Source: Bacteroidia bacterium
Lineage (GTDB): Bacteria; Bacteroidota; Bacteroidia; AKYH767-A; 2013-40CM-41-45
DNA: 64,000 nt
Direction of reading: 5' to 3'
NCBI GenBank assembly: GCA_038206355.1
Contig: JBBRAY010000008.1
Coordinates: 17,975-81,974, forward strand
A program made the translations under genes and the position numbers. Positions 5,240-59,398 of this stretch are shown here, one piece after another (the first letter of the stretch is position 1; each line of letters starts with the position of its first letter). The notes below the pieces were generated by a model. The model was not told the origin of the DNA. It ran no database searches and saw nothing but the letters and a program-made list of their open reading frames with translations.

Positions 5240-7162
5240 ATGAATAAAGTTCTACTGCTCTTATGCATTTCCCTTTTATGTTTTGAAACTTCTTTCTCTC
5301 AGAAAAGAAACAACATCTGGTGTTTCGGAGACAGCGCTTTGATTGATTTTAACACTCCAAACAACCCTGTTACCGGAATGAGTTCTGTAAGAAGCCGAGG
5401 CTCATGTGTTTCTATTGCCGATACTTCGGGACAACTTCTTTTCTATGCATATACAAGATATGGTATGTCGGGCAATACAACTTTGGTCATGAATAAAAAT
5501 AACCAGATCATGCAAAATAGAAGCAATATTGTTGGTGAGGGCTGGTACACTGAATTAATAATAATTCCTTATGCAAATCAAAATGATTTGTATTATCTAT
5601 TCTCAATATCTGTGACCGGCAGCAGTCAACTAGGACTTTATTATTCTGTTATTGATATGAGTATGAACGGAGGGCTTGGAATCGTAACTCAAAAAAATAT
5701 GCAGTTATCGAATTTACAATCTGTGGATGGTATTCAGGCGATTAGACATTCTAATGGAAGAGACTGGTGGTTACTGTTTCTTCCATGGCCAGTCAATCCG
5801 TCAAATGAATTCCAAACTTTCTTAATTGATACGAATGGAATATCAGGTCCCATAATTCAAACAGTAGGATCAAACAGGGTTGGTGTTTCAGATGGAATCG
5901 CATTCACTCAAAATGGAACCAGATTTTATTTAAAAACTCATTTTGGATTGGTCGAAAGATACGATTTTGACAGGTGTTCAGGAGTTATTTCAAACCCTCT
6001 TAATATAGAGCCTGAGTCAAATGGTAATTTCTATTTTGGAATTGCTATTTCTAAAAACGATAGCATTTTATACTTATCAAATCAGAATTCTAATTCACAT
6101 GGTTACTTATTTCAATATAATTTAATTGCACCCAATATTGCAACTTCAAGAGATACAATTTTTGATTTTGATTACTCCATATTTCCCAATAATTGCGTTG
6201 GTCAATTACGTTTGGCGCCAGACAATAAAATCTATATGACTAGCACAGATTGGGGAACCAGCAGTCTCTACTATGATAGCATGACCTATACTCCGTATAA
6301 TATGAATCTTGGAGTTATAAATTCCCCGAATTATTTAGGAACTCCATGCAATTTTCAACCATTCAGTTTTTCTCTGGGAGGCAAAAGAACTTATTGGTCT
6401 TTACCCAACAACCCGAATTATGATTTAGGTCCGCTCGTAAACAGCCCTTGTTATTTCTCAGTAAATTTTTCTGCCACAGATTCAATTTGTGCCGGGAACT
6501 GCATTGACTTTACAAACTATACATTAAATGCTAATTCTTATCAATGGAATTTTCCAGGAGCAATACCGAATACCAGCACAGATATAAATCCGCAAAGTAT
6601 CTGTTACCTTAACCCGGGCAACTACGATGTAACACTTATTGCCTCAGATGCAACCGGAAGCGATACACTAACTCTCACAAACTATATTACAGTATTTCCA
6701 AGCCCTCCACAAGCCATCACTCAAATCGGAGATACGCTTTTTGCAATCCCTCAGGCAGGAACTTATCAGTGGTACTTTAACGGTATTGTAATCAACGGAG
6801 CAACAGGTAGTTTTTATGTTGCACAGCAGAGCGGAGATTATAATGTGGTTCATACGGATACAAACGGATGCGAAGTAGAAGCAGCGGTGACCAATGTTGT
6901 AGCGGATGTACAATCGAGAATTGACAATCGCCAATTGACAATTTTTCCAAATCCCGTGACAGACAAATTCACCATTCCTGCCAATCTATTCGAACCAGAA
7001 AAACCTGTCGACATCTCAATTTTCAATGTGCCCGGAGAAAAGCTATATCATACTATTGATTACAGAAGGGAAATGGACTGTGGATTTCTCTCTCCTGGGA
7101 TGTATATTCTGGAACTAATTTCTGATAGTAAAATCTACAGGGCAAAGTTTGTCAAAAATTAA
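5240..7162 (+). CDS. Secreted protein with a T9SS type-A C-terminal sorting domain (paralog of 9965..11413)
   Basis: Signal peptide MNKVLLLLCISLLCFETSFSQ. The C-terminus LTIFPNPVTDKFTIP...GMYILELISDSKIYRAKFVKN is a Por_Secre_tail. The N-terminal QKRNNIWCFGDSALIDFN, LLFYAY and NGRDWWLLF blocks are shared with the gene at 9965..11413. Confidence 0.75.
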   Translation: MNKVLLLLCISLLCFETSFSQKRNNIWCFGDSALIDFNTPNNPVTGMSSVRSRGSCVSIADTSGQLLFYAYTRYGMSGNTTLVMNKNNQIMQNRSNIVGEGWYTELIIIPYANQNDLYYLFSISVTGSSQLGLYYSVIDMSMNGGLGIVTQKNMQLSNLQSVDGIQAIRHSNGRDWWLLFLPWPVNPSNEFQTFLIDTNGISGPIIQTVGSNRVGVSDGIAFTQNGTRFYLKTHFGLVERYDFDRCSGVISNPLNIEPESNGNFYFGIAISKNDSILYLSNQNSNSHGYLFQYNLIAPNIATSRDTIFDFDYSIFPNNCVGQLRLAPDNKIYMTSTDWGTSSLYYDSMTYTPYNMNLGVINSPNYLGTPCNFQPFSFSLGGKRTYWSLPNNPNYDLGPLVNSPCYFSVNFSATDSICAGNCIDFTNYTLNANSYQWNFPGAIPNTSTDINPQSICYLNPGNYDVTLIASDATGSDTLTLTNYITVFPSPPQAITQIGDTLFAIPQAGTYQWYFNGIVINGATGSFYVAQQSGDYNVVHTDTNGCEVEAAVTNVVADVQSRIDNRQLTIFPNPVTDKFTIPANLFEPEKPVDISIFNVPGEKLYHTIDYRREMDCGFLSPGMYILELISDSKIYRAKFVKN

Positions 7163-47948: not shown

Positions 47949-48179
47949 TTTAAAATATCCTCTTCCTGTTTATGTGTTTTGGCTGAATCAAATACCCTGG
48001 AATGCGCTCCTGACTTCCCGGGATTTTGTGGCAACCTGTTAACGACAAAGTTGCAAAAATATTTTAATAATGACCGCCCTAATCGTATCCTGAAAAAAGT
48101 TATCCTGAAAGGTTCTGTTGTATTCACAATGTATCCGTTACATTTGGTGCGCCTTAACTGAATTATTTCCTGTTTATTC

Positions 48180-49043
48180 ATGGCAGAAGAAAAAAAGAAA
48201 AAAAAACTCAGCGGACTGAAAAGCCGCTACAAGCTCGTTTTTCTGAACGAAGATACTTTTGAAGAGCGCGCCTCATTCACCCTCCGTCCGTTAACCATTT
48301 TCGTCAGCGTGGGCATTACCATCATTCTTCTGATTGTCCTTACTACCCTGCTCATTGCATTTACCGGCCTGAGGGAATATATTCCCGGATACAGCGATGT
48401 AAAGATGAAACGACAACTATTCACATTGATGCAAAGAAGCGACAGCATGCAGGTGGCTTTGAATGCGCGCGACTTGTACATCGACAACATCCGGAACATT
48501 GTAAACGGCACGCTGAAGAATGACTCCACAGATAAAAAACCACCGGCAAGTGCAAAAGTTGAAAATGTGAATTCCCTGAAAAAATCCAGAGAAGATTCCC
48601 TCCTCCGCAATGAAATTGAAGGCCGCGATAAATTTACACTGAGTGCTATCACTTCAGAGTCGTCAGGGATCAGCAGTTTTCTTTTTTTTCCACCTGTCAA
48701 GGGAATGATCACAAATCGTTTCAATGCCATTGGAAAACATTACGGTATCGATATCGCCGGCAATCCGAATGAAGCCGTAAAAGCAACGCTGGACGGAACG
48801 GTCATCCTCGCCAATTTCACCAGTGAAACAGGATGGGTAATTGCGATACAACACAGCAATAATTTTATTTCCTTTTACAAACACAATTCCTCCCTGCTGA
48901 AAAAAGCAGGAGACTATGTAAAAGCAGGCGATGTAATAGCTATCATAGGTAACAGTGGAGAACAATCAACCGGACCGCATCTGCATTTTGAACTGTGGTC
49001 AAACGGCAGTCCGCTCGATCCGCAGAAGTATGTGGCGTTTTGA
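48180..49043 (+). CDS. M23-family peptidase (LytM domain)
   Basis: GIDIAG...GNSGEQSTGPHLHFELW with an N-terminal TM anchor. Confidence 0.85.
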   Translation: MAEEKKKKKLSGLKSRYKLVFLNEDTFEERASFTLRPLTIFVSVGITIILLIVLTTLLIAFTGLREYIPGYSDVKMKRQLFTLMQRSDSMQVALNARDLYIDNIRNIVNGTLKNDSTDKKPPASAKVENVNSLKKSREDSLLRNEIEGRDKFTLSAITSESSGISSFLFFPPVKGMITNRFNAIGKHYGIDIAGNPNEAVKATLDGTVILANFTSETGWVIAIQHSNNFISFYKHNSSLLKKAGDYVKAGDVIAIIGNSGEQSTGPHLHFELWSNGSPLDPQKYVAF

Positions 49044-49141
49044 AGAAAATTCACGATGCATGATTGACGATGCACGAATGAAATCCGCCAAATGAAAAGT
49101 GGAATATGTTTGGTATCTTTAGGGAATATATTTTTCTATCG

Positions 49142-50674
49142 ATGAGAAAAAATTTGTGCTCATTAATATTCTTATTTGTTGTCAATTATGCCGAAGCACA
49201 AAGCACATTTGAAAAAGTGAGTCCTGAAGTCACTCCCCATATCGGAATGGCTATGGGAAAAAGCGGTAGTTTATTTTTACTGAGTGCTGTTGGAAGTCCG
49301 GATTCTGTTAAGACATGCATTTCGAAGATGGACGAAGACGGAAATTTTTATTGGAGCAAAACTTACTATCCCACTTCAGGAATTCTTGAGGCATGGAAAA
49401 TTTTACCTGCGTCCGATTTTGGATTTTTCTTAACCGGATGTTACCAAAAGTCCGGAAACTCAGATTACTTTATATTGAAGGCTGATAGTAACGGTTCTGT
49501 GATATGGTCGTGGTCTTACGATCATTCACAAACCGAAAACAGTTTGTCGGCTACTCTATTACCAGGTGGAGGAATAATGTTAGCAGGTGCAAGTATGGAT
49601 TCCGTATCCCATTTAGGTGATTATAATTCTCTTTTAAAAACAGACAGCTTAGGCAATGTTTTATTTTTTAAAAAGTATTATACCTCCGGCTATCAATATA
49701 GTGGCGGAAATGTCTTTTTGTTAGATGACAGTACATGCCTGATGCTATGCAGCTACCAGCAAAATTTTTCTGGAGTTTGGAAAACTCATCTATTGAAGAT
49801 CGATTTAAGTGGCTCAATACTACTTACCAGTTCATTGGAAAATTCAACTCAAAATGTAGATATAGGGAAAGCTCTTGCATTGCCTAATGGAGAGCTCTGT
49901 CTTATTGGCCAAATAGAAAATTTACCGCTGTTTGCACGTTTGAATTCTTCAGGAATAATTCAATGGTCAAAAGTTTTAACAAATTTTGATAATACAACTA
50001 TTTATGACATAGTAAATACTCATAATAATCAATACATAGCTATCGGTATTTGTCCCGATACTGCCAATGCACATTCAATCAGATTTCTACTGCAACTGGA
50101 TTCGGCAGGTAACAATATCCGGATGCATTCCTTTCCCCGGGATACCTATGCAACCATTGCAGGAATTGCTGCTGAGGGTGAGGATAATGGCCTCTATATG
50201 GGCGGTTTATTAATCCCTTTTTCCAATTTTATTCTCCAAAAAACGGATTCCATCGGAATGGCATCATGCGGAACCACACCACTAAGTTATTATGATAGTT
50301 CAATCAGTCTCGTGCAAAATTCTCCTGTTTATTTTGATTCAACATTCACTGTTGCACAAAATAATTTATTCGTTCTTGATTCGGCCGGAATATCATTTAC
50401 AGATTTTTGTCAAACTCTAAATATTACTAAATACTCTTCAATTGATGAAGCTTTAATTCTATCCCCAAATCCTGTGTCAGGAAAACTAACCATAACTAAT
50501 ATACAATCACCTGTTCAAGAAATATATCTCTACAACCTCCTTGGTGAAAAAATGCCTGTGAATATTGACTATCGATTGCTGACTGTAGACTGTTCTCTCC
50601 TCCTTCCCGGCATCTACATTTTACAGGCTATCGGAGACGGGAAAGTATTGTGTGGAAAAGTAATCATGGAATAA
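49142..50674 (+). CDS. T9SS type-A cargo protein (beta-propeller-like repeats)
   Basis: Signal peptide MRKNLCSLIFLFVVNYAEAQ and a C-terminal LSPNPVSGKLTIT...GIYILQAIGDGKVLCGKVIME. Confidence 0.7.
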   Translation: MRKNLCSLIFLFVVNYAEAQSTFEKVSPEVTPHIGMAMGKSGSLFLLSAVGSPDSVKTCISKMDEDGNFYWSKTYYPTSGILEAWKILPASDFGFFLTGCYQKSGNSDYFILKADSNGSVIWSWSYDHSQTENSLSATLLPGGGIMLAGASMDSVSHLGDYNSLLKTDSLGNVLFFKKYYTSGYQYSGGNVFLLDDSTCLMLCSYQQNFSGVWKTHLLKIDLSGSILLTSSLENSTQNVDIGKALALPNGELCLIGQIENLPLFARLNSSGIIQWSKVLTNFDNTTIYDIVNTHNNQYIAIGICPDTANAHSIRFLLQLDSAGNNIRMHSFPRDTYATIAGIAAEGEDNGLYMGGLLIPFSNFILQKTDSIGMASCGTTPLSYYDSSISLVQNSPVYFDSTFTVAQNNLFVLDSAGISFTDFCQTLNITKYSSIDEALILSPNPVSGKLTITNIQSPVQEIYLYNLLGEKMPVNIDYRLLTVDCSLLLPGIYILQAIGDGKVLCGKVIME

Positions 50675-50704
50675 AATTCATATTTTTTTCAAAAATATGT
50701 CAGT

Positions 50705-50902
50705 ATGAATTCATTCGTGATCACACCGCGCAACAAAAAAGAATATAAATTTCTTTTTGATCTAATGAACAAACTCAACCTAAAGTCTTCCGAACTCTCC
50801 AAAGAAACTGTTGAAAATGCCGGGCTTTTACTTTTAATGAATCAAGCCGACCGTAACAAGACAGTGAGACGCGAAACCATAATGAAAAAATTAAATTCCT
50901 GA
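50705..50902 (+). CDS. Putative antitoxin of a RelE/ParE-type module
   Basis: 65-aa ORF whose stop overlaps the toxin start (cTGATGg). Confidence 0.4.
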   Translation: MNSFVITPRNKKEYKFLFDLMNKLNLKSSELSKETVENAGLLLLMNQADRNKTVRRETIMKKLNS

Positions 50903-51147
50903 TGGAGGTTGAATTTCTTCGGCGTTTTTCAAAAGATATTGATGATTTGCGTTCTACTGATCTGAAAAAGAAAATTGCAAAAATTATTGTTCCGGTTGAA
51001 GGGGCTGAACGCATTTCGGCGATTCACAATATTAAGAAGCTGAGAGGTCATTCTTATACCTACCGCATCGGGTTATTCATTGAAGGTGATATAGTGAAAT
51101 TTGCACGTGTTGTCCATCGTAAGGAAATTTACCGGGTATTTCCTTGA
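50902..51147 (+). CDS. RelE/ParE-family toxin-like protein
   Basis: LRGHSYTYRIGLFIEGDIVKFARVVHRKEIY fits the RelE/ParE C-terminal pattern. Confidence 0.55.
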   Translation: MEVEFLRRFSKDIDDLRSTDLKKKIAKIIVPVEGAERISAIHNIKKLRGHSYTYRIGLFIEGDIVKFARVVHRKEIYRVFP

Positions 51148-51244
51148 TGCAGAAAAATGGCACATGAAAAAAATTTTCAATATAAATTTCATCTGAATTT
51201 ATTTAGCGCGTCGAATAAGTTTTTTCCGCACTTTTAGTCCCTCA

Positions 51245-52741
51245 ATGAATTTCCTTTCAACACTCAGCAAACCCATAGCATCGTTCGCCGCCGGCGCCTT
51301 AAAACACCAGGCCAGGAACGCTGTTGCAATGCAGGAAAAAATATTCAGGACACTCATCAGGAAAGCGCGCAATACCGCTTTTGGAAAAGACCACTGGTTT
51401 AAAGAAATAAAAACATACAATGATTTCACAAGCCGTGTGCCCGTGCGCGACTACGAAGCGCTGAAACCTTATATTGATCGAATGCTCAATGGCGAAGAAA
51501 GTATTTTATGGCCCGGCAAACCGTTGTACGTTTCAAAAACATCAGGTACCACTTCCGGTATCAAATACATACCCATCACGAAAGACAGCATCAGCAACCA
51601 CATCAACAGCACACGAAATGCCATGCTGGCCTACATTGCAGAAACAGGTAAGGCGGATTTTCTGAAAGGCAAATTGATTTTTATCAGCGGAAGTCCTGCC
51701 CTCGAAAATAAAAACGGACTGAAGGTGGGGCGACTCAGCGGCATTGTAAATCACCACGTACCGCAATACCTGAGAAGAAATCAACTGCCCGGCTGGGAAA
51801 CCAACTGTATTGACGACTTTGAAAAAAAAATCGATCACATTGTGAATGAAACCCTTTCACAAAACATGACCATGATCAGCGGAATCCCCCCCTGGGTGCA
51901 GATGTATTTTGATAAATTAGTGGAAGCATCAGGAAAAAATATCATGGACATTTTTCCAAATTTCTCTCTGTTCATTTATGGTGGCGTAAATTATGAACCC
52001 TACCGGAAAAAGTTTGAGCAGACCATCGGAAAAAAAATTGACTCCATTGAATTGTATCCCGCTTCAGAAGGTTTCATTGCATTTCAGGACAATCAGAAAA
52101 AAAATGATTTATACCTGAATATCAACTCCGGAATATTTTTTGAATTTATTCAGGCCTCAGATTTTTTTAAGGATAATCCAAAACGCATTTCCCTTAAAGA
52201 CGTGAACCCCGGCGTGAACTACGCCATCATCCTCAGTAATAACGCAGGACTCTGGGGTTATTCACTCGGCGACACGATAAAATTTACTTCAGTAAATCCC
52301 TTTCGAATCGTTGTTACAGGAAGATTAAAACACCAGATCACGGCGTTCGGTGAACACGTTATTGCCGAAGAAGTTGAAAATGCACTTCTCGAAGCTTGTG
52401 CTGCACATCATGCACATGTGGCTGAATTTACACTTGCGCCTCAGGTGAATCCTGATGCCGGCGAAAAGCCGTACCATGAATGGTTTATTGAATTTGACCG
52501 GGAGCCCGATAACATCAACCGTTTTTCTAAATCACTTGATGAATCAATTGCCAGACAAAATATTTATTACAAGGATTTAATCTCAGGGCATATATTGCAA
52601 CCTTTGAAAGTGCGCGTGATGAAAAAAGATTCTTTCATTGATTACATGCGCTCACAGGGAAAACTCGGCGGACAAAATAAAATGCCACGGCTCAGCAACG
52701 ACAGAATAATAGCTGATGAATTGAAAAAGTATATTCAGTAA
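51245..52741 (+). CDS. GH3 auxin-responsive-promoter family protein (acyl-adenylate-forming fold)
   Basis: SKTSGTTSGIKYIPITKDS, an ANL-type AMP-binding motif in GH3 context, 498 aa. Confidence 0.6.
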   Translation: MNFLSTLSKPIASFAAGALKHQARNAVAMQEKIFRTLIRKARNTAFGKDHWFKEIKTYNDFTSRVPVRDYEALKPYIDRMLNGEESILWPGKPLYVSKTSGTTSGIKYIPITKDSISNHINSTRNAMLAYIAETGKADFLKGKLIFISGSPALENKNGLKVGRLSGIVNHHVPQYLRRNQLPGWETNCIDDFEKKIDHIVNETLSQNMTMISGIPPWVQMYFDKLVEASGKNIMDIFPNFSLFIYGGVNYEPYRKKFEQTIGKKIDSIELYPASEGFIAFQDNQKKNDLYLNINSGIFFEFIQASDFFKDNPKRISLKDVNPGVNYAIILSNNAGLWGYSLGDTIKFTSVNPFRIVVTGRLKHQITAFGEHVIAEEVENALLEACAAHHAHVAEFTLAPQVNPDAGEKPYHEWFIEFDREPDNINRFSKSLDESIARQNIYYKDLISGHILQPLKVRVMKKDSFIDYMRSQGKLGGQNKMPRLSNDRIIADELKKYIQ

Positions 52742-52769
52742 TGATTAACTTTACCAAAAATATTTTTCC

Positions 52770-52952
52770 ATGCGTAAAGAAATGGTAATTGAAACTCTGA
52801 AGCAGTTTCCCGAAGAATTTTCTCTGGAAGATTTAATCGAACGGATTATTGTTATCGACAAAGTTGAGCGTGCTCGTGAATCAGTACTTAATGGAAACAC
52901 AACGTCCATTGCAGAAGCAGAAAAGCAATTGAAGCAAAAATGGTCGAAATAA
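52770..52952 (+). CDS. Putative addiction-module antitoxin
   Basis: 60 aa, MVIETLKQFPEEFSLEDLIERIIVIDKVERARESV, with a 13-bp overlap onto the toxin frame. Confidence 0.45.
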   Translation: MRKEMVIETLKQFPEEFSLEDLIERIIVIDKVERARESVLNGNTTSIAEAEKQLKQKWSK

Positions 52953-53236
52953 TATTTTCAGATTTTGCGATTGAAGATATAAATAGTGTCGCAGAATATA
53001 TTGCATTAGATTCACCTTTGTATGCCTCCAATTTTGTTGATGGAGTTTTCGAACGTATATATCAATTGGAAGAATTTCCTGATTCCGGAAAAACAACTCC
53101 TGAAAGTGAGAATGATAACATTAGAGAACTCAATTACGGAAATTATCGGATAATATATGAACTTATTAGTTAGACCCAAATCGTCGTTTTAAGGGTTCTT
53201 CACGGAGCAAGAAATATTTCGAATCAAGATTTTTAA
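52940..53236 (+). pseudogene. RelE/ParE-family toxin gene with an in-frame TAG at 53171-53173
   Basis: ...NYGNYRIIYELIS then TAG, and the same frame continues TQIVVLRVLHGARNISNQDF (canonical ParE C-terminus) to the TAA at 53234-53236. Confidence 0.55.
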
Positions 53237-53242
53237 AATTAA

Positions 53243-54421
53243 TTGAGATTGAAAAAGTCCATCGCAATACTCGGATCTACAGGCAGCATCGGCACGCAGG
53301 CCCTTGATGTAATTACCACTCATCCGGACAATTTTTCTGTAGAAGTACTAACTTCCAATAGCAATGCTGACTTGCTGATTGAACAATCCATAAAATTTCA
53401 ACCCAATGCAGTCGTTATTGCCGATAAAAATAAATACAGCTACGTAAAATCAACACTGGAAAAATATCCCATCAAAGTTTTTGCAGGTGAAGAATCGCTT
53501 TCGCAGGTGATGGAGATGGAAAGCATTGATATGGTACTCACTGCCGTAGTCGGATTTGCAGGACTGAGGCCCACACTTGCCGCCATTAAAGCAGGAAAAC
53601 AAATCGCGCTTGCAAATAAAGAAACACTGGTTGTTGCCGGTGAACTTGTTACCGCTTTAGCAAAGGAAAAAGCGGTAAACATTTACCCTGTTGACTCCGA
53701 ACATTCAGCCATTTTTCAATGTCTTGCCGGAGAGTGGAACAACCAGATTGAAAAAATTTACCTCACTGCATCCGGCGGACCATTCAGGGGTAAAGACAAA
53801 AATTTTCTCAGCACAGTAAAAAAAGAGCAGGCCCTTAAACATCCCAACTGGGACATGGGAGCGAAAATCACCATCGACTCTGCATCAATGATGAATAAAG
53901 GGCTTGAGATGATTGAAGCAAAATGGCTTTTCCATCTTACCCCGGATAAGATTGACGTCATCATCCATCCGCAAAGCATCATTCATTCTATCGTTCAGTT
54001 CAAAGACGGAAGTATGAAAGCGCAAATGGGACTGCCCGATATGAAGCTTCCAATTCAATATGCACTGGGATACCCTGAACGTTTAAAATCTGATTTCCCG
54101 CGATTTGATTTCACAAAATATCCTTCCCTCACATTTGAAAAACCCGATGCAACAACATTCCGAAATCTTGCATTGGCAACGGAAGCATTGGAAAAAGGCG
54201 GGAATCTCCCATGCATATTAAATGCTGCAAATGAAATTGCAGTAGCTGCATTTCTAAAAGACAGGATTGGTTTTCTTGAAATGAGCGACATGATTGAAAG
54301 TTGCATGTCAGAGGTGAAATTTATAACGCATCCGTCTCTGGAAGATTATCTGCTCACCGACAAGGAAACCCGGATAATTGCAAGTGAGTGGATTGAAAAA
54401 AATTTAATTACCTCCCGTTAA
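53243..54421 (+). CDS. dxr: 1-deoxy-D-xylulose-5-phosphate reductoisomerase
   Basis: ILGSTGSIGTQALDVI, ANKETLV and DSEHSAIFQCL; TTG start. Confidence 0.9.
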   Translation: MRLKKSIAILGSTGSIGTQALDVITTHPDNFSVEVLTSNSNADLLIEQSIKFQPNAVVIADKNKYSYVKSTLEKYPIKVFAGEESLSQVMEMESIDMVLTAVVGFAGLRPTLAAIKAGKQIALANKETLVVAGELVTALAKEKAVNIYPVDSEHSAIFQCLAGEWNNQIEKIYLTASGGPFRGKDKNFLSTVKKEQALKHPNWDMGAKITIDSASMMNKGLEMIEAKWLFHLTPDKIDVIIHPQSIIHSIVQFKDGSMKAQMGLPDMKLPIQYALGYPERLKSDFPRFDFTKYPSLTFEKPDATTFRNLALATEALEKGGNLPCILNAANEIAVAAFLKDRIGFLEMSDMIESCMSEVKFITHPSLEDYLLTDKETRIIASEWIEKNLITSR

Positions 54422-54458
54422 TTTGCTGGATGAAAGTCATTAACCTGCAGTTGTCACA

Positions 54459-55193
54459 ATGAAAGAACTGATCAAAGATACCATACGTAAAAGCCTGAAT
54501 GCACTTCACCTGGATCTTACAAAGAATTTAAAGTATGACAGACTTACTAAAGAAGTCATAGCCAGGTCGCTGAAAAAAAACTCCAATGCTATTGACGTGG
54601 GCTGCCATAAAGGTGAAATTCTTGACCTCATTTTAAAGCATGCCCCTGAAGGAAACCATTTTGCCTTTGAGCCGATTCCTGATTTTTACAATGCACTCAA
54701 AATAAAATATGCTTCCCGCTGTGAAATTTTTCCTTTTGCCCTCAGTGATCAGCCCGGAGAAACAACATTCAACTACGTTAAAAATGCACCTGCCTTCAGC
54801 GGAATCAAAAAAAGAAAATATGAGGTACAGAATCCTGATGTAGAGGAGTTGCATGTAAAAGTAGAATCGCTAGACCATTTGATTCCTGCTACAACACAAA
54901 TTGATTTTATAAAAATTGACGTGGAAGGCGGTGAATTCGGAGTCCTCAAAGGAGCAAAGCAACTTTTACAAAGGTCTAAACCAATAGTCGTTTTTGAATG
55001 TGGCCTGGGCGCCAGCGATTTTTACGGAACAAAACCCGGAGAGCTTTTTGATTTTTTATTGCAATGCGGATACGGAATATATTCACTGCAAAACTGGCTC
55101 GAAAAAGGGGCATCATACAAGTCGAATGAATTCACCGATTGCTTTAATAAGAATACAGAATATTATTTCGTCGCCCGTCCGGATAACGGGTAA
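54459..55193 (+). CDS. FkbM-family methyltransferase
   Basis: IDFIKIDVEGGEFGVLKGAKQLLQRSKPIVVFE. Confidence 0.7.
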   Translation: MKELIKDTIRKSLNALHLDLTKNLKYDRLTKEVIARSLKKNSNAIDVGCHKGEILDLILKHAPEGNHFAFEPIPDFYNALKIKYASRCEIFPFALSDQPGETTFNYVKNAPAFSGIKKRKYEVQNPDVEELHVKVESLDHLIPATTQIDFIKIDVEGGEFGVLKGAKQLLQRSKPIVVFECGLGASDFYGTKPGELFDFLLQCGYGIYSLQNWLEKGASYKSNEFTDCFNKNTEYYFVARPDNG

Positions 55194-55242
55194 CCGATAA
55201 CGGATAACTTCTTCTATCTTTGCGCCTCAAAAAAAATTAAGA

Positions 55243-56565
55243 ATGAACGGATTAGTTATGGCCGCCCAGTTAATCCTGGGGCTTGCGATTTTAGTAACCC
55301 TACATGAGCTGGGACATTTTCTTGCTGCGAGGGCTTTCGGTATCCGCGTGGAAAAATTTTATTTGTTTTTTGATGCATGGGGATTTAAATTTTTCTCTTT
55401 TAAAAAAGGAGATACAGAATACGGAATAGGCTGGCTTCCACTCGGAGGATATGTAAAAATATCCGGAATGATCGACGAAAGCATGGACAAAGATGCCATG
55501 AAACTGCCACCTGAACCATGGGAATTCCGCAGTAAACCGGCCTGGCAGCGGCTCATCGTAATGATTGGTGGCGTGACGATGAATGTATTGCTCGGTATAT
55601 TTATTTACACTGCCAGTCTCCTCCACTACGATAAAGAATATCTGGCAAACAAAGACGTGAACGATGGTATTTATGCTTTTGACCTGGCTGAAAAACTCGG
55701 CTTACAAACAGGAGATAAGATCACTGCCATCAATGGAAAACCTTTCGAAAGATTTGAAGAGCTCCTCTCTTCCAAAGTAATTTTTGGATGTGACCTGACT
55801 GTTGATCGCAATGGTCAAACCATACATGTGATTGTTCCCGACGATTTTTATTTTGACGTTACTAAAACCGGCAAGGGCTTTTTTATCAGTACAAACCAGA
55901 CCAGCCTCATCATCGACAGTGCAGTAAAAGGTAAACCCGGTGAGGCAGCAGGCCTGCAAAAGAATGATAAAGTAATTACCGTAAACGGAAAGCGAACTGC
56001 TTCACCCGACGGAGCAAGGAAAATCATCAGGGAAAATACAGGCAAGATTGTTTCGCTTGTCGTACTTCGAAATGCTGACACATTACAGTTTCAACCACTG
56101 GTAAGCGATTCAGGAATTATCGGGGTTTATTTCAGAATGGATCTCGGAAACTATCCGATGACACCTTATACTTTCGGATCAGCACTTACCATTGGAACCG
56201 CCGATGCTGTCGAAGCCATTGTTGGAAATATCAAAGGGCTGAAACAGATTTTTGTCGGAAAAGCGAAAGCATCAGAATCTTTGCAAGGACCTATCGGTAT
56301 TGCCACTATTTATGGCAGCACATGGGACTGGCGCTGGTTCTGGAAAATAACCGGCTTGTTAAGTATGATTCTGGCATTCATGAACATCCTTCCCATTCCG
56401 GCACTTGATGGCGGTCATGTTGTATTCCTTGTAATTGAAGCCGTGACGAAAAGGAAGTTCTCCGATAAATTTATGGAGCGCGCACAGGTTACAGGTATGG
56501 TCATTCTTTTAGCACTGATGGCTTTTACCATCGGCAATGACATCTGGAAACATGTGATTAATTGA
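55243..56565 (+). CDS. rseP: RIP metalloprotease RseP (M50 site-2 protease with PDZ)
   Basis: HELGHF (HExxH) in the first TM helix, a PDZ-like middle and a C-terminal LDGGH. Confidence 0.85.
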   Translation: MNGLVMAAQLILGLAILVTLHELGHFLAARAFGIRVEKFYLFFDAWGFKFFSFKKGDTEYGIGWLPLGGYVKISGMIDESMDKDAMKLPPEPWEFRSKPAWQRLIVMIGGVTMNVLLGIFIYTASLLHYDKEYLANKDVNDGIYAFDLAEKLGLQTGDKITAINGKPFERFEELLSSKVIFGCDLTVDRNGQTIHVIVPDDFYFDVTKTGKGFFISTNQTSLIIDSAVKGKPGEAAGLQKNDKVITVNGKRTASPDGARKIIRENTGKIVSLVVLRNADTLQFQPLVSDSGIIGVYFRMDLGNYPMTPYTFGSALTIGTADAVEAIVGNIKGLKQIFVGKAKASESLQGPIGIATIYGSTWDWRWFWKITGLLSMILAFMNILPIPALDGGHVVFLVIEAVTKRKFSDKFMERAQVTGMVILLALMAFTIGNDIWKHVIN

Positions 56566-56573
56566 TCAGGCGA

Positions 56574-56990
56574 TCAGCAAAACTCTTCGTAAGTTGCCTT
56601 CAAATGATCAGCAATCATTTGTGCTGAACGGCCTTCAATATGATGGCGCTCAATGAAATGAACAAGTTTCCCGTCTTTAAACAAGGCTATTGAAGGAGAA
56701 GATGGCGGATAAGGAAGTGTATATTTCCTTGCCTGCGCAGTAGCTTCCATATCCTGTCCTGCGAAAACGGTAACGAGCTTTCCCGGTTTTTTACCTTCTT
56801 GCAATGACATGCGAACGCCCGGTCTTGCCGTTCCCGCCGCACAACCGCAAACAGAATTCATAACGAGCAACATGGTACCCTTGCTGTTGGGGATGACCTG
56901 GTCAACCTGGTCAGGGCTTTTTAACTCTTCAAATCCCGATGCGACTAATTCTTCGCGCATTGGGGTGCAGATATATTCCGGATAAGGCAT
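56574..56990 (-). CDS. Bacilliredoxin BrxA/BrxB (YphP/YqiW, DUF1094) family thiol-disulfide protein
   Basis: LLVMNSVCGCAAGTARPGV has the CGC motif; the overall order tracks B. subtilis YphP as remembered. Confidence 0.7.
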   Translation of the reverse strand: MPYPEYICTPMREELVASGFEELKSPDQVDQVIPNSKGTMLLVMNSVCGCAAGTARPGVRMSLQEGKKPGKLVTVFAGQDMEATAQARKYTLPYPPSSPSIALFKDGKLVHFIERHHIEGRSAQMIADHLKATYEEFC

Positions 56991-57207
56991 TTTTATTGGA
57001 TTTTTAAGGACGTAAAAGTAAGCATCCTTTTTTTCTTACGCTACCCTCAACACCCCGGGACACGGAAATGTTTTCAATCTGATAATTTTTCCAACCCATT
57101 TGGAAGATGTGAGACCCGGTGTCTCAAAACCTTACAGTTGTAATGTTCCTGCCCTCTTCCCGCCACTGCAGCTTTTCCATACCCCTATTTTGCAGACACA
57201 CACAATA

Positions 57208-57633
57208 ATGAATATGAGAACAATTACAATCGCACTTCTGCTTGTCCTTTCCTATGCTGCAAAAGCACAGGATATCCTTCCAAACAAGGTTTACCGCATC
57301 ACCGCTTATCAGAACGGGAATAATAATATTGTAAGCACCTCCAATTATGCTGAGGTGGTACCACCTACCAGTATTTTTATCCCAAGCGCATTTACGCCCA
57401 ATGACGATGGAATAAATGATTCTTTCGGAGTAAAAGGAGAAGGAATACAAAATTATAAAATGCTCATTTATAACCGTTGGGGAGAGGTGATCTTTTCATC
57501 TACCAATCCCGCAGAACACTGGAACGGAAAATATAAAAACGAACCGGTTGAAAACGGCGTGTATGTGTATGAGGTTTTTGCCAAGGGTTTTGGGAAACAT
57601 CCAAAAGCCGGTGCAGTTACATTGCTGAGATAA
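57208..57633 (+). CDS. Mini-protein: signal peptide plus T9SS type-B (CHU_C) C-terminal domain, almost no passenger
   Basis: MNMRTITIALLLVLSYAAKAQ, then about 35 aa, then FTPNDDGINDSF...LIYNRWGEVIF...HWNGKY...NGVYVYEVF...GAVTLLR. Confidence 0.65.
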   Translation: MNMRTITIALLLVLSYAAKAQDILPNKVYRITAYQNGNNNIVSTSNYAEVVPPTSIFIPSAFTPNDDGINDSFGVKGEGIQNYKMLIYNRWGEVIFSSTNPAEHWNGKYKNEPVENGVYVYEVFAKGFGKHPKAGAVTLLR

Positions 57634-57656
57634 AAAACGATAATTAAAATATCAAT

Positions 57657-57684
57657 AAAACTGCACCTAAAAATGCAGTTTTAT
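57657..57684. terminator. Bidirectional terminator hairpin between convergent genes
   Basis: AACTGCA cctaaaaa TGCAGTT flanked by A-run and T-run. Confidence 0.5.
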
Positions 57685-57696
57685 TATGCTTTTAAT

Positions 57697-59142
57697 TTAG
57701 AGTTTGATGCAAACATTTTTTTCTTCAGTAAAAAATTTCAGTGCTTCAAAACCGCCTTCTCTTCCCACTCCTGAATTTTTCATTCCGCCAAAAGGAGTTC
57801 TGAGGTCTCTCAACAACCAGCAGTTAACCCAGATAATTCCGCTGTGAAGTCGTGCCGCAATACGATGTGCGCGTTTTAAATTTTCAGTCCATATTGTTCC
57901 GGCTAAACCATATTGAGTAGAGTTCGCCATCATCAATGCTTCCTCTTCTGTTTCAAACGGAGTGAGTGTTACTACAGGACCGAAAATTTCTTCCTGGTTG
58001 GTGCGGCAATCATGCGGCAGGTTTTCAAAAACAGTCGGCTCTATAAAATATCCCTTTGAATTTTTCCCCGGGAGTTGTAATTGCTTTCCGCCGCATAAAA
58101 GTTTTCCGCCTTCCTGTTTGGCCAATTCGATGTAAGAAAGTATTTTTTCGAGATGAGGTTTACTTACAATTGCGCCCATCCTGCTTTCAGCGTTTAAAGG
58201 ATCGCCCACTATTAACGTTGAAACCCTTTTCAAAAATGCATCTTTATACTTCTCATAAATACTTTTCTCGATGAAGATGCGTGAGCCGCACAAACATATT
58301 TCACCCTGATTGCTGAAAGCTGCATTCACAGAAGTTTTCACGGCATCGTCAAAATTGCAGTCTGCAAAAACAAGGTTAGGATTTTTTCCGCCAAGTTCCA
58401 GCGACAATTTCTTAAACATAGGTGCTGCTGTTTTTGCAATCCACTCACCTGTTTTTGTTCCTCCTGTAAAACTGATGGCCGGAATTCCGGGATGAGAAAC
58501 AATTGCAGCTCCCACTTTTGGTCCGAGGCCATGAATAATATTCAAAACTCCTTTTGGAAGACCCGCTTCATTGCAAAGTTCAGCGAGTAGAAATGCAGTC
58601 ATGGGAGTGATTTCACTTGGTTTGGCAATCACACAATTTCCTGATGCAAGTGCCGGAACAATTTTCCAGGTAAATAAATATAACGGCAGGTTCCAGGGTG
58701 ATATGCATCCTGCAATTCCGATGGGTTGACGTAGCGTATAATTGATCGCCGCATTTTCCATCGCATGTGCTTCTGTTGCAAGATGAATGGCGCCCGTTGC
58801 ATAAAAATGAAAATTGTCACGCGCTCTGGGAATATCAACACTCTTTGCAAGCCACAACGGTTTACCCTGATCAATGCTTTCAGCCATTGCCAATCGGTCA
58901 AGGTTCTTATCAATGAGTGCAGAAATTTTCAGAAGAATATCTGATCGTTGCGCCACGGGCATATTGCTCCACGCCTGGAATGCAGCCTTCGCGGCGGCAA
59001 CAGCAAGCTCAACATCCCTTTCATCAGAATCAGGTATCAGCGAATAAACTTCACCTGTTGCAGGATTGATATTATCTATGTACGTTTTTCCAACGGGCTC
59101 AACGAGTTCACCGTTAATATAATTCAGAATTTTTTGGGTCAT
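57697..59142 (-). CDS. NAD(P)-dependent aldehyde dehydrogenase
   Basis: FTGGTKTG, LELGGKNP and EICLCGSR (catalytic Cys). The start is the internal Met MTQKIL. Confidence 0.85.
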   Translation of the reverse strand: MTQKILNYINGELVEPVGKTYIDNINPATGEVYSLIPDSDERDVELAVAAAKAAFQAWSNMPVAQRSDILLKISALIDKNLDRLAMAESIDQGKPLWLAKSVDIPRARDNFHFYATGAIHLATEAHAMENAAINYTLRQPIGIAGCISPWNLPLYLFTWKIVPALASGNCVIAKPSEITPMTAFLLAELCNEAGLPKGVLNIIHGLGPKVGAAIVSHPGIPAISFTGGTKTGEWIAKTAAPMFKKLSLELGGKNPNLVFADCNFDDAVKTSVNAAFSNQGEICLCGSRIFIEKSIYEKYKDAFLKRVSTLIVGDPLNAESRMGAIVSKPHLEKILSYIELAKQEGGKLLCGGKQLQLPGKNSKGYFIEPTVFENLPHDCRTNQEEIFGPVVTLTPFETEEEALMMANSTQYGLAGTIWTENLKRAHRIAARLHSGIIWVNCWLLRDLRTPFGGMKNSGVGREGGFEALKFFTEEKNVCIKL

Positions 59143-59398
59143 GATGCAAAAGTACAATGTTGGGGTGAATGAGAGCTGTCCAATTTGATTATTGAATTAC
59201 CCATTATGATTTTTGCGGTAAACCCGATGCAATTTAGATCATATAAATGCGAAAGAGGAGAAGGTGCTTTAAAATGATATTTGAAGACCTCCGATTAGTG
59301 ACTTTGGTTTTTGAAACACCTGAAGTTTTACTTAGTTTTAGCTTATGAACTTACAAGTTGACTTTCTTCCGTAATTCTCTGTTTTGTATATTTGTACC

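Follow-up and report, generated by a model that had tools for sequence, protein, structure and literature searches.

Introduction

The described systems closest to the locus reported here are type II toxin-antitoxin (TA) modules of the RelE/ParE superfamily. On the RelE branch, this is the RelB3-RelE3 system of Methanocaldococcus jannaschii (PDB entry 3BPQ), and on the ParE branch these are the ParD-ParE systems ParDE3 of Mesorhizobium opportunistum (5CEG, 6X0A), PaaA2-ParE2 of E. coli O157 (5CW7), and ParDE2 of V. cholerae (7R5A). Degraded TA loci are frequent, as are antitoxins left as orphans, and two fates, that of a neutral remnant or that of an anti-addiction element, were proposed in a population survey of Klebsiella pneumoniae (PMC7192599). 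In the present study, a stretch of 64,000 nucleotides from a Bacteroidia bacterium (assembly GCA_038206355.1, contig JBBRAY010000008.1, positions 17,975 to 81,974; hereafter the window) was analyzed for a locus at positions 50,705 to 53,236, where two pairs of small overlapping genes, TA1 (AT1 and T1) and TA2 (AT2 and T2), flank a gene of the GH3 family. The described relative of the GH3 gene is OlsH, the lyso-ornithine lipid synthetase of Singulisphaera acidiphila. About 90% of the bacterial OlsH homologues are found in Bacteroidota, where they are considered unlikely to make N-acyl ornithine and where the suggested products are other N-acyl amino acids (PMC12493201).

The locus very probably consists of two separate type II TA cassettes beside a resident GH3 gene, in which both toxins are damaged, both antitoxins are intact, and decay has started from the toxins. 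Its features, with the evidence for each, are as follows.

50705-50902, + strand: AT1, putative antitoxin of TA1, intact, 65 amino acids (open reading frame, ORF; family unclassified)
50902-51147, + strand: T1, RelE3-like toxin gene shortened by an in-frame deletion of 21 nucleotides (seven codons) that is specific to this lineage, 81 amino acids (homologue alignment)
51064-51069, + strand: junction of the T1 deletion, a single CGCATC (DNA alignment against the sister genome L002)
51245-52741, + strand: GH3-like adenylating acyl-amido synthetase, 498 amino acids, resident core gene (Pfam GH3 N, M, and C domains)
52770-52952, + strand: AT2, putative ParE-cognate antitoxin, intact, 60 amino acids (ORF; family without a Pfam model)
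52940-53173, + strand: T2, ParE-family toxin gene, 77 amino acids, cut by a TAG at 53171-53173 (Pfam, sister allele)
53174-53236, + strand: 3' part of T2 left stranded beyond the TAG, 20 codons (TQIVVLRVLHGARNISNQDF) and a TAA (translation)
53243-54421, + strand: dxr, the ancestral direct downstream neighbour of GH3 (Pfam DXP_reductoisom domains, synteny)

Organization of the locus

All ORFs were found where a sequence-only reading of this DNA had placed them, as two overlapping pairs of small genes on either side of a GH3 acyl-amido-synthetase-like gene, and the presence of the GH3 N, M, and C domains in the central gene agreed with that assignment. Both pairs showed a compact two-gene arrangement, in which a small antitoxin gene overlaps the toxin gene downstream: the ORFs of AT1 and T1 share one nucleotide (TGATG) and those of AT2 and T2 share 13. 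The GC content of the TA genes was 0.33-0.37, compared to 0.42-0.46 for GH3 and dxr. A full-length intact toxin ORF was found in neither pair, and a second copy of AT1, T1, AT2, or T2 was not found within the window.

A sister metagenome-assembled genome (MAG) of Bacteroidota, GCA_039930605.1, includes a contig (L002) with a nucleotide identity of about 78% to the window. The gene order of this contig is the same as that of the window and consists of an M23 peptidase, a protein with a type IX secretion system (T9SS) tail, a 65-amino-acid gene, an 88-amino-acid toxin, GH3, a 60-amino-acid gene, a 98-amino-acid ParE, dxr, an FkbM methyltransferase, and rseP.

The ParE-family toxin T2 and its partner AT2

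The reading frame of T2 halts at a TAG (53171-53173), which is codon 78 of 98, and then runs on in the same frame as TQIVVLRVLHGARNISNQDF to a TAA at 53234-53236. The sequence-only reading had described this in-frame stop with a conserved ParE ending beyond it, and the translation bore the description out. The alignment to ParE profiles that had been proposed as a check gave a full-length match: the read-through product of 98 amino acids, with the TAG entered as X, covered positions 1-88 of the 89 in the Pfam ParE_toxin model (64.6 bits, E=1.2e-17). The truncated T2 clustered at an identity of 90% or higher with a 98-amino-acid protein of the sister MAG (P0006, MEO8086056.1), where the TAG codon is an AAA (Lys). 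Only two of the 20 residues encoded 3' of the TAG differ between the window and the sister MAG, and the nonsense change therefore looks recent.

The lesion removes a substantial part of the fold. In a structural model of the intact T2 allele (predicted local distance difference test, pLDDT, of 87.8), beta-strands were observed at residues 61-66, 69-77, and 80-88, where the strand at 80-88 and the tail at 89-98 lie after codon 78. The TAG thus strips the last core beta-strand (QIVVLRVLH) together with the C-terminal tail. Against a hidden Markov model (HMM) of the T2 family, the cut protein scored 99.3 bits and the read-through product 121.2 bits, a loss of 22 bits.

The T2 family profile matched the ParE structures 6X0A (8e-15), 7ETR, 5CW7, and 7R5A in the PDB. 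A Foldseek search with the model of the intact sister allele returned 6X0A, 5CW7, and 7R5A as top matches; all chains at ranks 1 to 21 were ParE or ParE-like (ParE3, PfiT, ParE2, and PrpT), and the first RelE-type chain occurred at rank 22. The closest relatives of this allele in both sequence and structure are hence characterised ParE toxins rather than RelE RNases. From its family and fold, T2 is presumably a gyrase poison.

The partner gene AT2 had no match in Pfam, NCBIfam, or the PDB by sequence and profile searches. A phmmer scan identified 188 representatives of 50%-identity clusters that match AT2 at E<=1e-3, most of them 59-60 amino acids in length. A Pfam scan of 50 members of this family yielded isolated chance matches only and no plausible family, and a word-index homologue search with AT2 returned the orthologue alone. 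Among the homologues (P0114-P0263), which are about 60 amino acids long and for which neither Pfam nor NCBIfam has a model, Pro14 and Trp58 were nearly invariant. With at least 188 clusters at 50% identity, the AT2 family could merit an entry of its own as an antitoxin family. At every locus examined (the window, L002, L088, L090/L091, L095, and L096), an AT2 homologue of 58-60 amino acids overlapped a downstream ParE_toxin gene.

The RelE3-like toxin T1 and its partner AT1

The sequence-only reading had recognized one nonsense-inactivated toxin. The nonsense change in T2 is genuine, as the Lys codon of the sister allele indicated, but the first toxin proved to be damaged as well. T1 comprises 81 amino acids in the window and 88 in the sister orthologue. 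A DNA alignment of the two revealed a clean gap of 21 nucleotides in the window copy, located between two CGCATC repeats, with the residues YRIRVGD gone. At this site, the sister MAG reads ...TAC CGCATC CGTGTGGGCGATTAT CGCATC GG..., i.e., two CGCATC copies separated by 15 nucleotides. The single CGCATC of the window against the repeat pair of the sister is what a deletion by strand slippage or microhomology typically leaves behind.

The deletion was unique to the window. Nearly all of the 104 T1 homologues are 88-90 amino acids long, and in an alignment of 27 sequences the segment YRIRVGDYRIG was kept in all 26 others, the loss of seven residues being confined to the window copy. No other motif of the T1 family is as strongly conserved as the one hit by the deletion. 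The window T1 has lost part of the YRIRVGDYRI segment and retains HRKEIYR. AlphaFold modelled the intact orthologue with a pLDDT of 93.7 and placed beta-strands at residues 53-58, 61-68, and 71-79, and the residues missing from the window T1 correspond to the strand at 53-58 and the turn that follows it, a part of the core sheet that carries conserved Arg residues. The family HMM gave the window copy 86.7 bits, compared to 120.7 bits with the seven residues restored, a loss of 34 bits.

The assignment of both pairs to the RelE/ParE superfamily, as made by the sequence-only reading, held directly for T2 and by way of relatives for T1. The window T1 scored 12.5 bits against Pfam ParE_toxin (PF05016), below the cut-off of 23, while the intact sister orthologue passed with 26.7 bits. 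The T1 family profile matched RelE3 of M. jannaschii (3BPQ_B) over residues 1-88 of 88 (E=1.7e-26). The RelE/ParE identity of the window T1 thus follows from its intact orthologue and from the family profile. In a Foldseek search, the best matches of the model of the intact orthologue were RelE3 (3BPQ), followed by the RelE of T. thermophilus, the RelE of E. coli, and YafQ. R57, R62, R80, and Y84 are invariant in the T1 family and could possibly correspond to catalytic residues in the RelE of E. coli. Its family and fold indicate that T1 is presumably a ribosome-dependent mRNA interferase.

Similar to AT2, AT1 had no match in Pfam, NCBIfam, or the PDB in sequence and profile searches. A 65-amino-acid AT1 homologue was found directly 5' of a T1 homologue at all four loci examined (the window, L002, L084, and L087).

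Regions upstream of the antitoxin genes

By eye, AT-rich palindromes were seen to adjoin both antitoxin starts: CATATTTTT-TTC-AAAAATATG at 50677-50704 before AT1, and AAAAATATTTTT at 52757-52768 before AT2. The Bacteroidota-type -7 motif TAnnTTTG was observed 11-24 nucleotides 5' of the AT1 homologues in L002, L084, and L087; upstream of the window AT1, it occurred only with one mismatch, which is a weak hint. The palindromes and the -7-like motif could be operators or promoters, or could have arisen by chance in AT-rich DNA. A scan for sigma-70 promoters and terminators returned counts not above the shuffled expectation, with a model that is ill-suited to Bacteroidota.

Probable decay of the toxins

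The following course of events would account for the present state of the locus. Two unrelated cassettes of the RelE/ParE superfamily would have been inserted separately into the intergenic gaps on either side of GH3, and both would have been present in the common ancestor with the sister MAG, or would have been exchanged with the sister later. In the window genome, each toxin would then have gained its own lesion. T1 would have lost 21 nucleotides by slippage between the CGCATC repeats, and with them a core beta-strand and turn (YRIRVGD), and T2 would have acquired the nonsense TAG at codon 78. The outcome would most likely be two modules with dead toxins, each leaving its antitoxin behind as an orphan. 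These antitoxins are perhaps neutral remnants; alternatively, they could act in anti-addiction by neutralising the same toxins when further copies of them arrive.

A loss of toxicity in the window T1 and T2 can be inferred on good grounds, because the segments lost are core strands and because C-terminal truncations have been reported to abolish ParE toxicity. The latter was described for the ParE of C. crescentus and for MtParE2, possibly through destabilisation (PMC11925232). What the sequences show directly is the order of the genes, the families to which they are assigned, both lesions and how unique these are, and the ancestral synteny. The biochemical targets of the two toxins are likewise inferred, and a residual role of the antitoxins is a possibility. 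The locus is of an ordinary kind, namely chromosomal TA modules of type II whose toxins decay first, which is a common fate of such modules.

Several points weigh against the account of two toxin-dead modules. The antitoxin roles of AT1 and AT2 are argued entirely from position, size, overlap, and conserved pairing, and neither protein matches a known antitoxin family. The lesion of T1 is an in-frame deletion of seven amino acids that could leave partial activity, and low-level read-through of the TAG could still yield some full-length ParE. In addition, both lesions are known from only one sequencing run (SRR19962010, in two assemblies), and two exact-pattern scans of Joint Genome Institute (JGI) metagenome contigs for T2 alleles recovered no further allele.

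Among the alternatives, the one that survives best is that both modules are still functional as a milder TA system with attenuated toxins, where the shortened T1 would cleave mRNA and T2 would be produced in small amounts by read-through of the TAG or would act as a truncated protein. Both lesions leave the downstream frame intact, the codons after the TAG are conserved, and certain naturally occurring ParE toxins are kept although they are not toxic (PMC11925232). The models indicate, on the other side, that the central sheet loses an entire strand to each lesion, and the T1 deletion was seen in no other family member. The window contains neither a suppressor tRNA nor a recoding signal and uses TAG as a normal stop, and the conservation downstream of the TAG is equally expected after a recent mutation. 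Attenuated but working toxins are therefore rather unlikely, and loss of toxicity is the preferred reading.

Authenticity of the lesions

TAG is a genuine stop codon elsewhere in the window, as the sequence-only reading had stated from the end of sufS: it terminates five of the 38 long ORFs, including the SufS-like class-V aminotransferase at 1203-2558. A search for elements that might permit suppression or recoding was negative both for tRNA genes, over the window, and for Rfam elements, over 48000-56000. Recoding or suppression of the TAG in T2 was considered and rejected, the codon being an ordinary stop with no tRNA or Rfam element near it.

The Logan assembly of the run SRR19962010 matched the window over 52570-59173 at an identity of 100%, the TAG included, and the 81-amino-acid T1 was likewise reproduced in the Logan assembly of this run. 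The recovery of both lesions at 100% identity in independent Logan assemblies argues against an artefact of the assembler. Errors of sequencing or assembly are very unlikely to have produced the TAG, the 21-nucleotide gap, or both in an organism whose toxins are intact. Such errors would be favoured by the origin of the sequence from a MAG and by the apparent derivation of the two lesion-bearing assemblies from the single run; against them, two different assemblers agree completely over 6.6 kb including the TAG, and the shortened T1 was also reproduced. An in-frame deletion of 21 nucleotides bounded by a direct repeat is, moreover, typical of biological slippage and atypical of an Illumina consensus error. 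Decay is also known to occur in the T1 family, as a frameshifted T1 of another genome recurs in three assemblies.

This other genome carries a TA1-like cassette (L084, 8001-8315; GCA_038230515.1, JBBRND010000021.1) directly before the gene of an ATP-binding cassette (ABC) transporter ATPase. Its T1 homologue is split by a frameshift from a deletion of one nucleotide, its antitoxin is intact, and in the original frame ...LVQYARFAHRKEIYRQFP* can still be read. The three assemblies with this allele include that of the run SRR19962015. Independent toxin lesions beside intact antitoxins thus amounted to three in the TA1 and TA2 families.

Synteny of the GH3 region and mobility of the cassettes

Relatives of the GH3 gene were encoded in more than 575 Bacteroidota species, and synteny was counted over the best 80 GH3 loci. 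In 59 of these 80 loci (59 of 80 species), dxr was located directly 3' of GH3 on the same strand, with a gap of at most 150 bp in 37 of the 59, and rseP was usually the next gene. In the nearest relatives (L004, L006, L007, and L010; 67-69% identity), the order was M23-GH3-dxr-rseP with gaps below about 190 bp and no TA genes. The M23-GH3-dxr-rseP order is the ancestral Bacteroidota backbone, to which GH3 is native. The adjacency of GH3 and dxr in 59 of the 80 species indicates that GH3 is resident and that only the TA pairs were inserted, separately from one another.

Separate inserts into this backbone were gained in the lineage of the window and the sister MAG. The T9SS-tail gene and TA1 are located in the gap between M23 and GH3, TA2 separates GH3 from dxr, and an FkbM methyltransferase gene separates dxr from rseP. 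The last of these, an FkbM-type Methyltransf_21 gene at 54459-55193, was found between dxr and rseP only in this lineage, the two genes being adjacent elsewhere; a Methyltransf_21 gene also follows the TA2-like cassette of L088. The T9SS C-terminal-sorting-domain protein at 49106-50674, between M23 and TA1, is 28-32% identical to its sister counterpart (L002, 4101-5711), compared to 81-89% for its neighbours, and nucleotide homology with the sister returns only in the last 145 nucleotides or so (Por_Secre_tail). Either this gene is hypervariable, or a replacement has taken place.

The same antitoxin-toxin pairings occurred in unrelated contexts, for TA1 in the window, L002, L084, and L087, and for TA2 as well. 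Outside of the present locus, TA1 was observed beside an ABC transporter gene (L084) and beside an integrase and a HepT/MNT pair (L087). Relatives of TA2 were observed between tkt and glpX (L090, L091), beside pyrG (L095), and at other housekeeping junctions. Around the window cassettes, a search for flanking repeats and target-site duplications found only short AT-rich chance matches, and no tRNA was present in the 64-kb window and no integrase among the neighbouring ORFs. A search of PLSDB for a plasmid origin (blastn in the 'distant' mode, with 50600-53300) returned no match.

Other small genes also occurred in the gap between GH3 and dxr. The gaps longer than 450 bp (n=13) held the following genes, and at least four different TA types were found in this gap among about 60 species.

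L012, 6624-7127: YefM-YoeB
L046, 6558-7243: UPF0175-DUF3368
L083, 6623-7241: HigB-HigA
L011, 4578-5082: ORF6N protein
L017, L024, L026, L030, and L055, about 6500-7080: 23S_rRNA_IVP four-helix-bundle genes, in several Pedobacter
L078: extracytoplasmic function (ECF) sigma/anti-sigma set

The synonymous divergence (pS) between the window and the sister MAG differed between the two groups of genes, at 0.67-0.73 (saturated) in the core genes and 0.29-0.60 in the TA genes. Among the codons for conserved residues, 27% of those in the TA genes differed, compared to 47% of those in the core genes on either side (Fisher p=4e-9). An AT-rich codon bias was at first suspected as the cause of the lower pS, but the deficit remained after normalisation for codon usage, with the TA genes at 0.50 of the saturation level and the core genes at 0.77. 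The lower divergence may reflect a later exchange of cassette alleles or a constraint on synonymous sites.

The presence of at least four TA types in the gap, the codon difference of 27% against 47%, and the three toxin lesions together prompt a broader, tentative proposal. Across Bacteroidota, the gaps beside GH3 might act as a landing site to which small selfish cassettes, promoter-light TA pairs among them, return repeatedly, and the cassettes might move between lineages after speciation, in a cycle of sweeping in, decay of the toxin first, and retention of the antitoxin as immunity against re-invasion. This cycle is a possibility, though on balance a doubtful one.

A functional tie of the TA pairs to GH3 or dxr, for example in regulating or stabilising the locus, would make the bracketing more than a coincidence. 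AT2 begins 28 nucleotides past GH3 and T2 ends six nucleotides before the dxr ORF, which makes co-transcription plausible; the arrangement is kept in the sister MAG, and other TA types lie in the GH3-dxr gap of other genomes. Such a tie is nevertheless highly improbable, because other genomes also carry the cassettes elsewhere than beside GH3 and dxr, a TA module is absent from the GH3-dxr locus of most species, and the unrelated small genes in the gap (23S_rRNA_IVP, ORF6N, and the ECF sigma factor) fit a permissive insertion site instead.

The sequence-only reading had taken the block of GH3 and TA genes for an insertion island upstream of dxr, and the synteny of relatives speaks otherwise: the site does not lack GH3 in the relatives, and only the TA genes are lineage-specific. 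That GH3 and both modules arrived as a single horizontally acquired island is scarcely credible, for although the TA pairs bracket GH3 with a GC content below that of the surroundings and the TA1-GH3-TA2 block recurs in the sister MAG, GH3 occurs in so many species, directly 5' of dxr in most of the loci counted and without TA genes in its nearest relatives, its GC content and synonymous divergence resemble those of core genes (GC 0.42-0.45) and not those of the TA genes, neither flanking repeats nor an integrase were found, and each cassette occurs alone in other contexts.

For annotation, these results correct the island reading and identify GH3 as a core Bacteroidota gene beside dxr. They also show that a superficially intact 81-amino-acid 'toxin' is a deletion variant, and flag the antitoxin families of AT1 and AT2 as lacking a Pfam or NCBIfam model, which is a minor gain. 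Biologically, the two cassettes make a tidy and unsurprising case of toxin-first decay and of intergenic gaps as landing sites for cassettes, and open no long-standing question.

Comparison with known systems

The GH3 gene shares the N, M, and C domains with OlsH (PMC12493201) and aligned over nearly the full length of the OlsH model. It differs in its score, which was 393.6 bits against the cut-off of 620 for the NCBIfam equivalog (NF052613), below the level required for assignment to OlsH, and in its surroundings, where the neighbours olsI and olsG are absent.

The T1 family matches RelE3 of M. jannaschii from end to end, and the model of the intact orthologue superimposed on it with a template modelling (TM) score of 0.81 at 38% identity. 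The motifs YRIRVG-Y-IG and HRK-IY and the length of 88 amino acids are common to RelE3 and the T1 family. The window T1 differs in having lost seven residues of the first motif, and its host is a member of the Bacteroidota and not an archaeon. The antitoxins also differ, as no sequence similarity of the 65-amino-acid AT1 to RelB3, or to an antitoxin of solved structure, was detectable.

PaaA2 is an antitoxin of 63 amino acids that lacks a DNA-binding domain. The small size of AT2 recalls it, a resemblance that is a lead only. Compared to the ParD-ParE systems, the read-through of T2 is a full-length ParE_toxin, the model of the intact allele reached TM scores of 0.8-0.85, and the antitoxin gene is likewise upstream and overlapping. 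In contrast, the window T2 is cut at codon 78, and the 60-amino-acid AT2 matches no ParD, PaaA2, or other family in Pfam, NCBIfam, or the PDB.

The degraded chromosomal TA loci with orphan antitoxins surveyed in Klebsiella pneumoniae (PMC7192599) likewise have an intact antitoxin beside a disrupted toxin. The present locus differs from them in that its antitoxins belong to unmodelled families, its host is an uncultured member of the Bacteroidota, and two modules about 2 kb apart both carry a damaged toxin in one genome.

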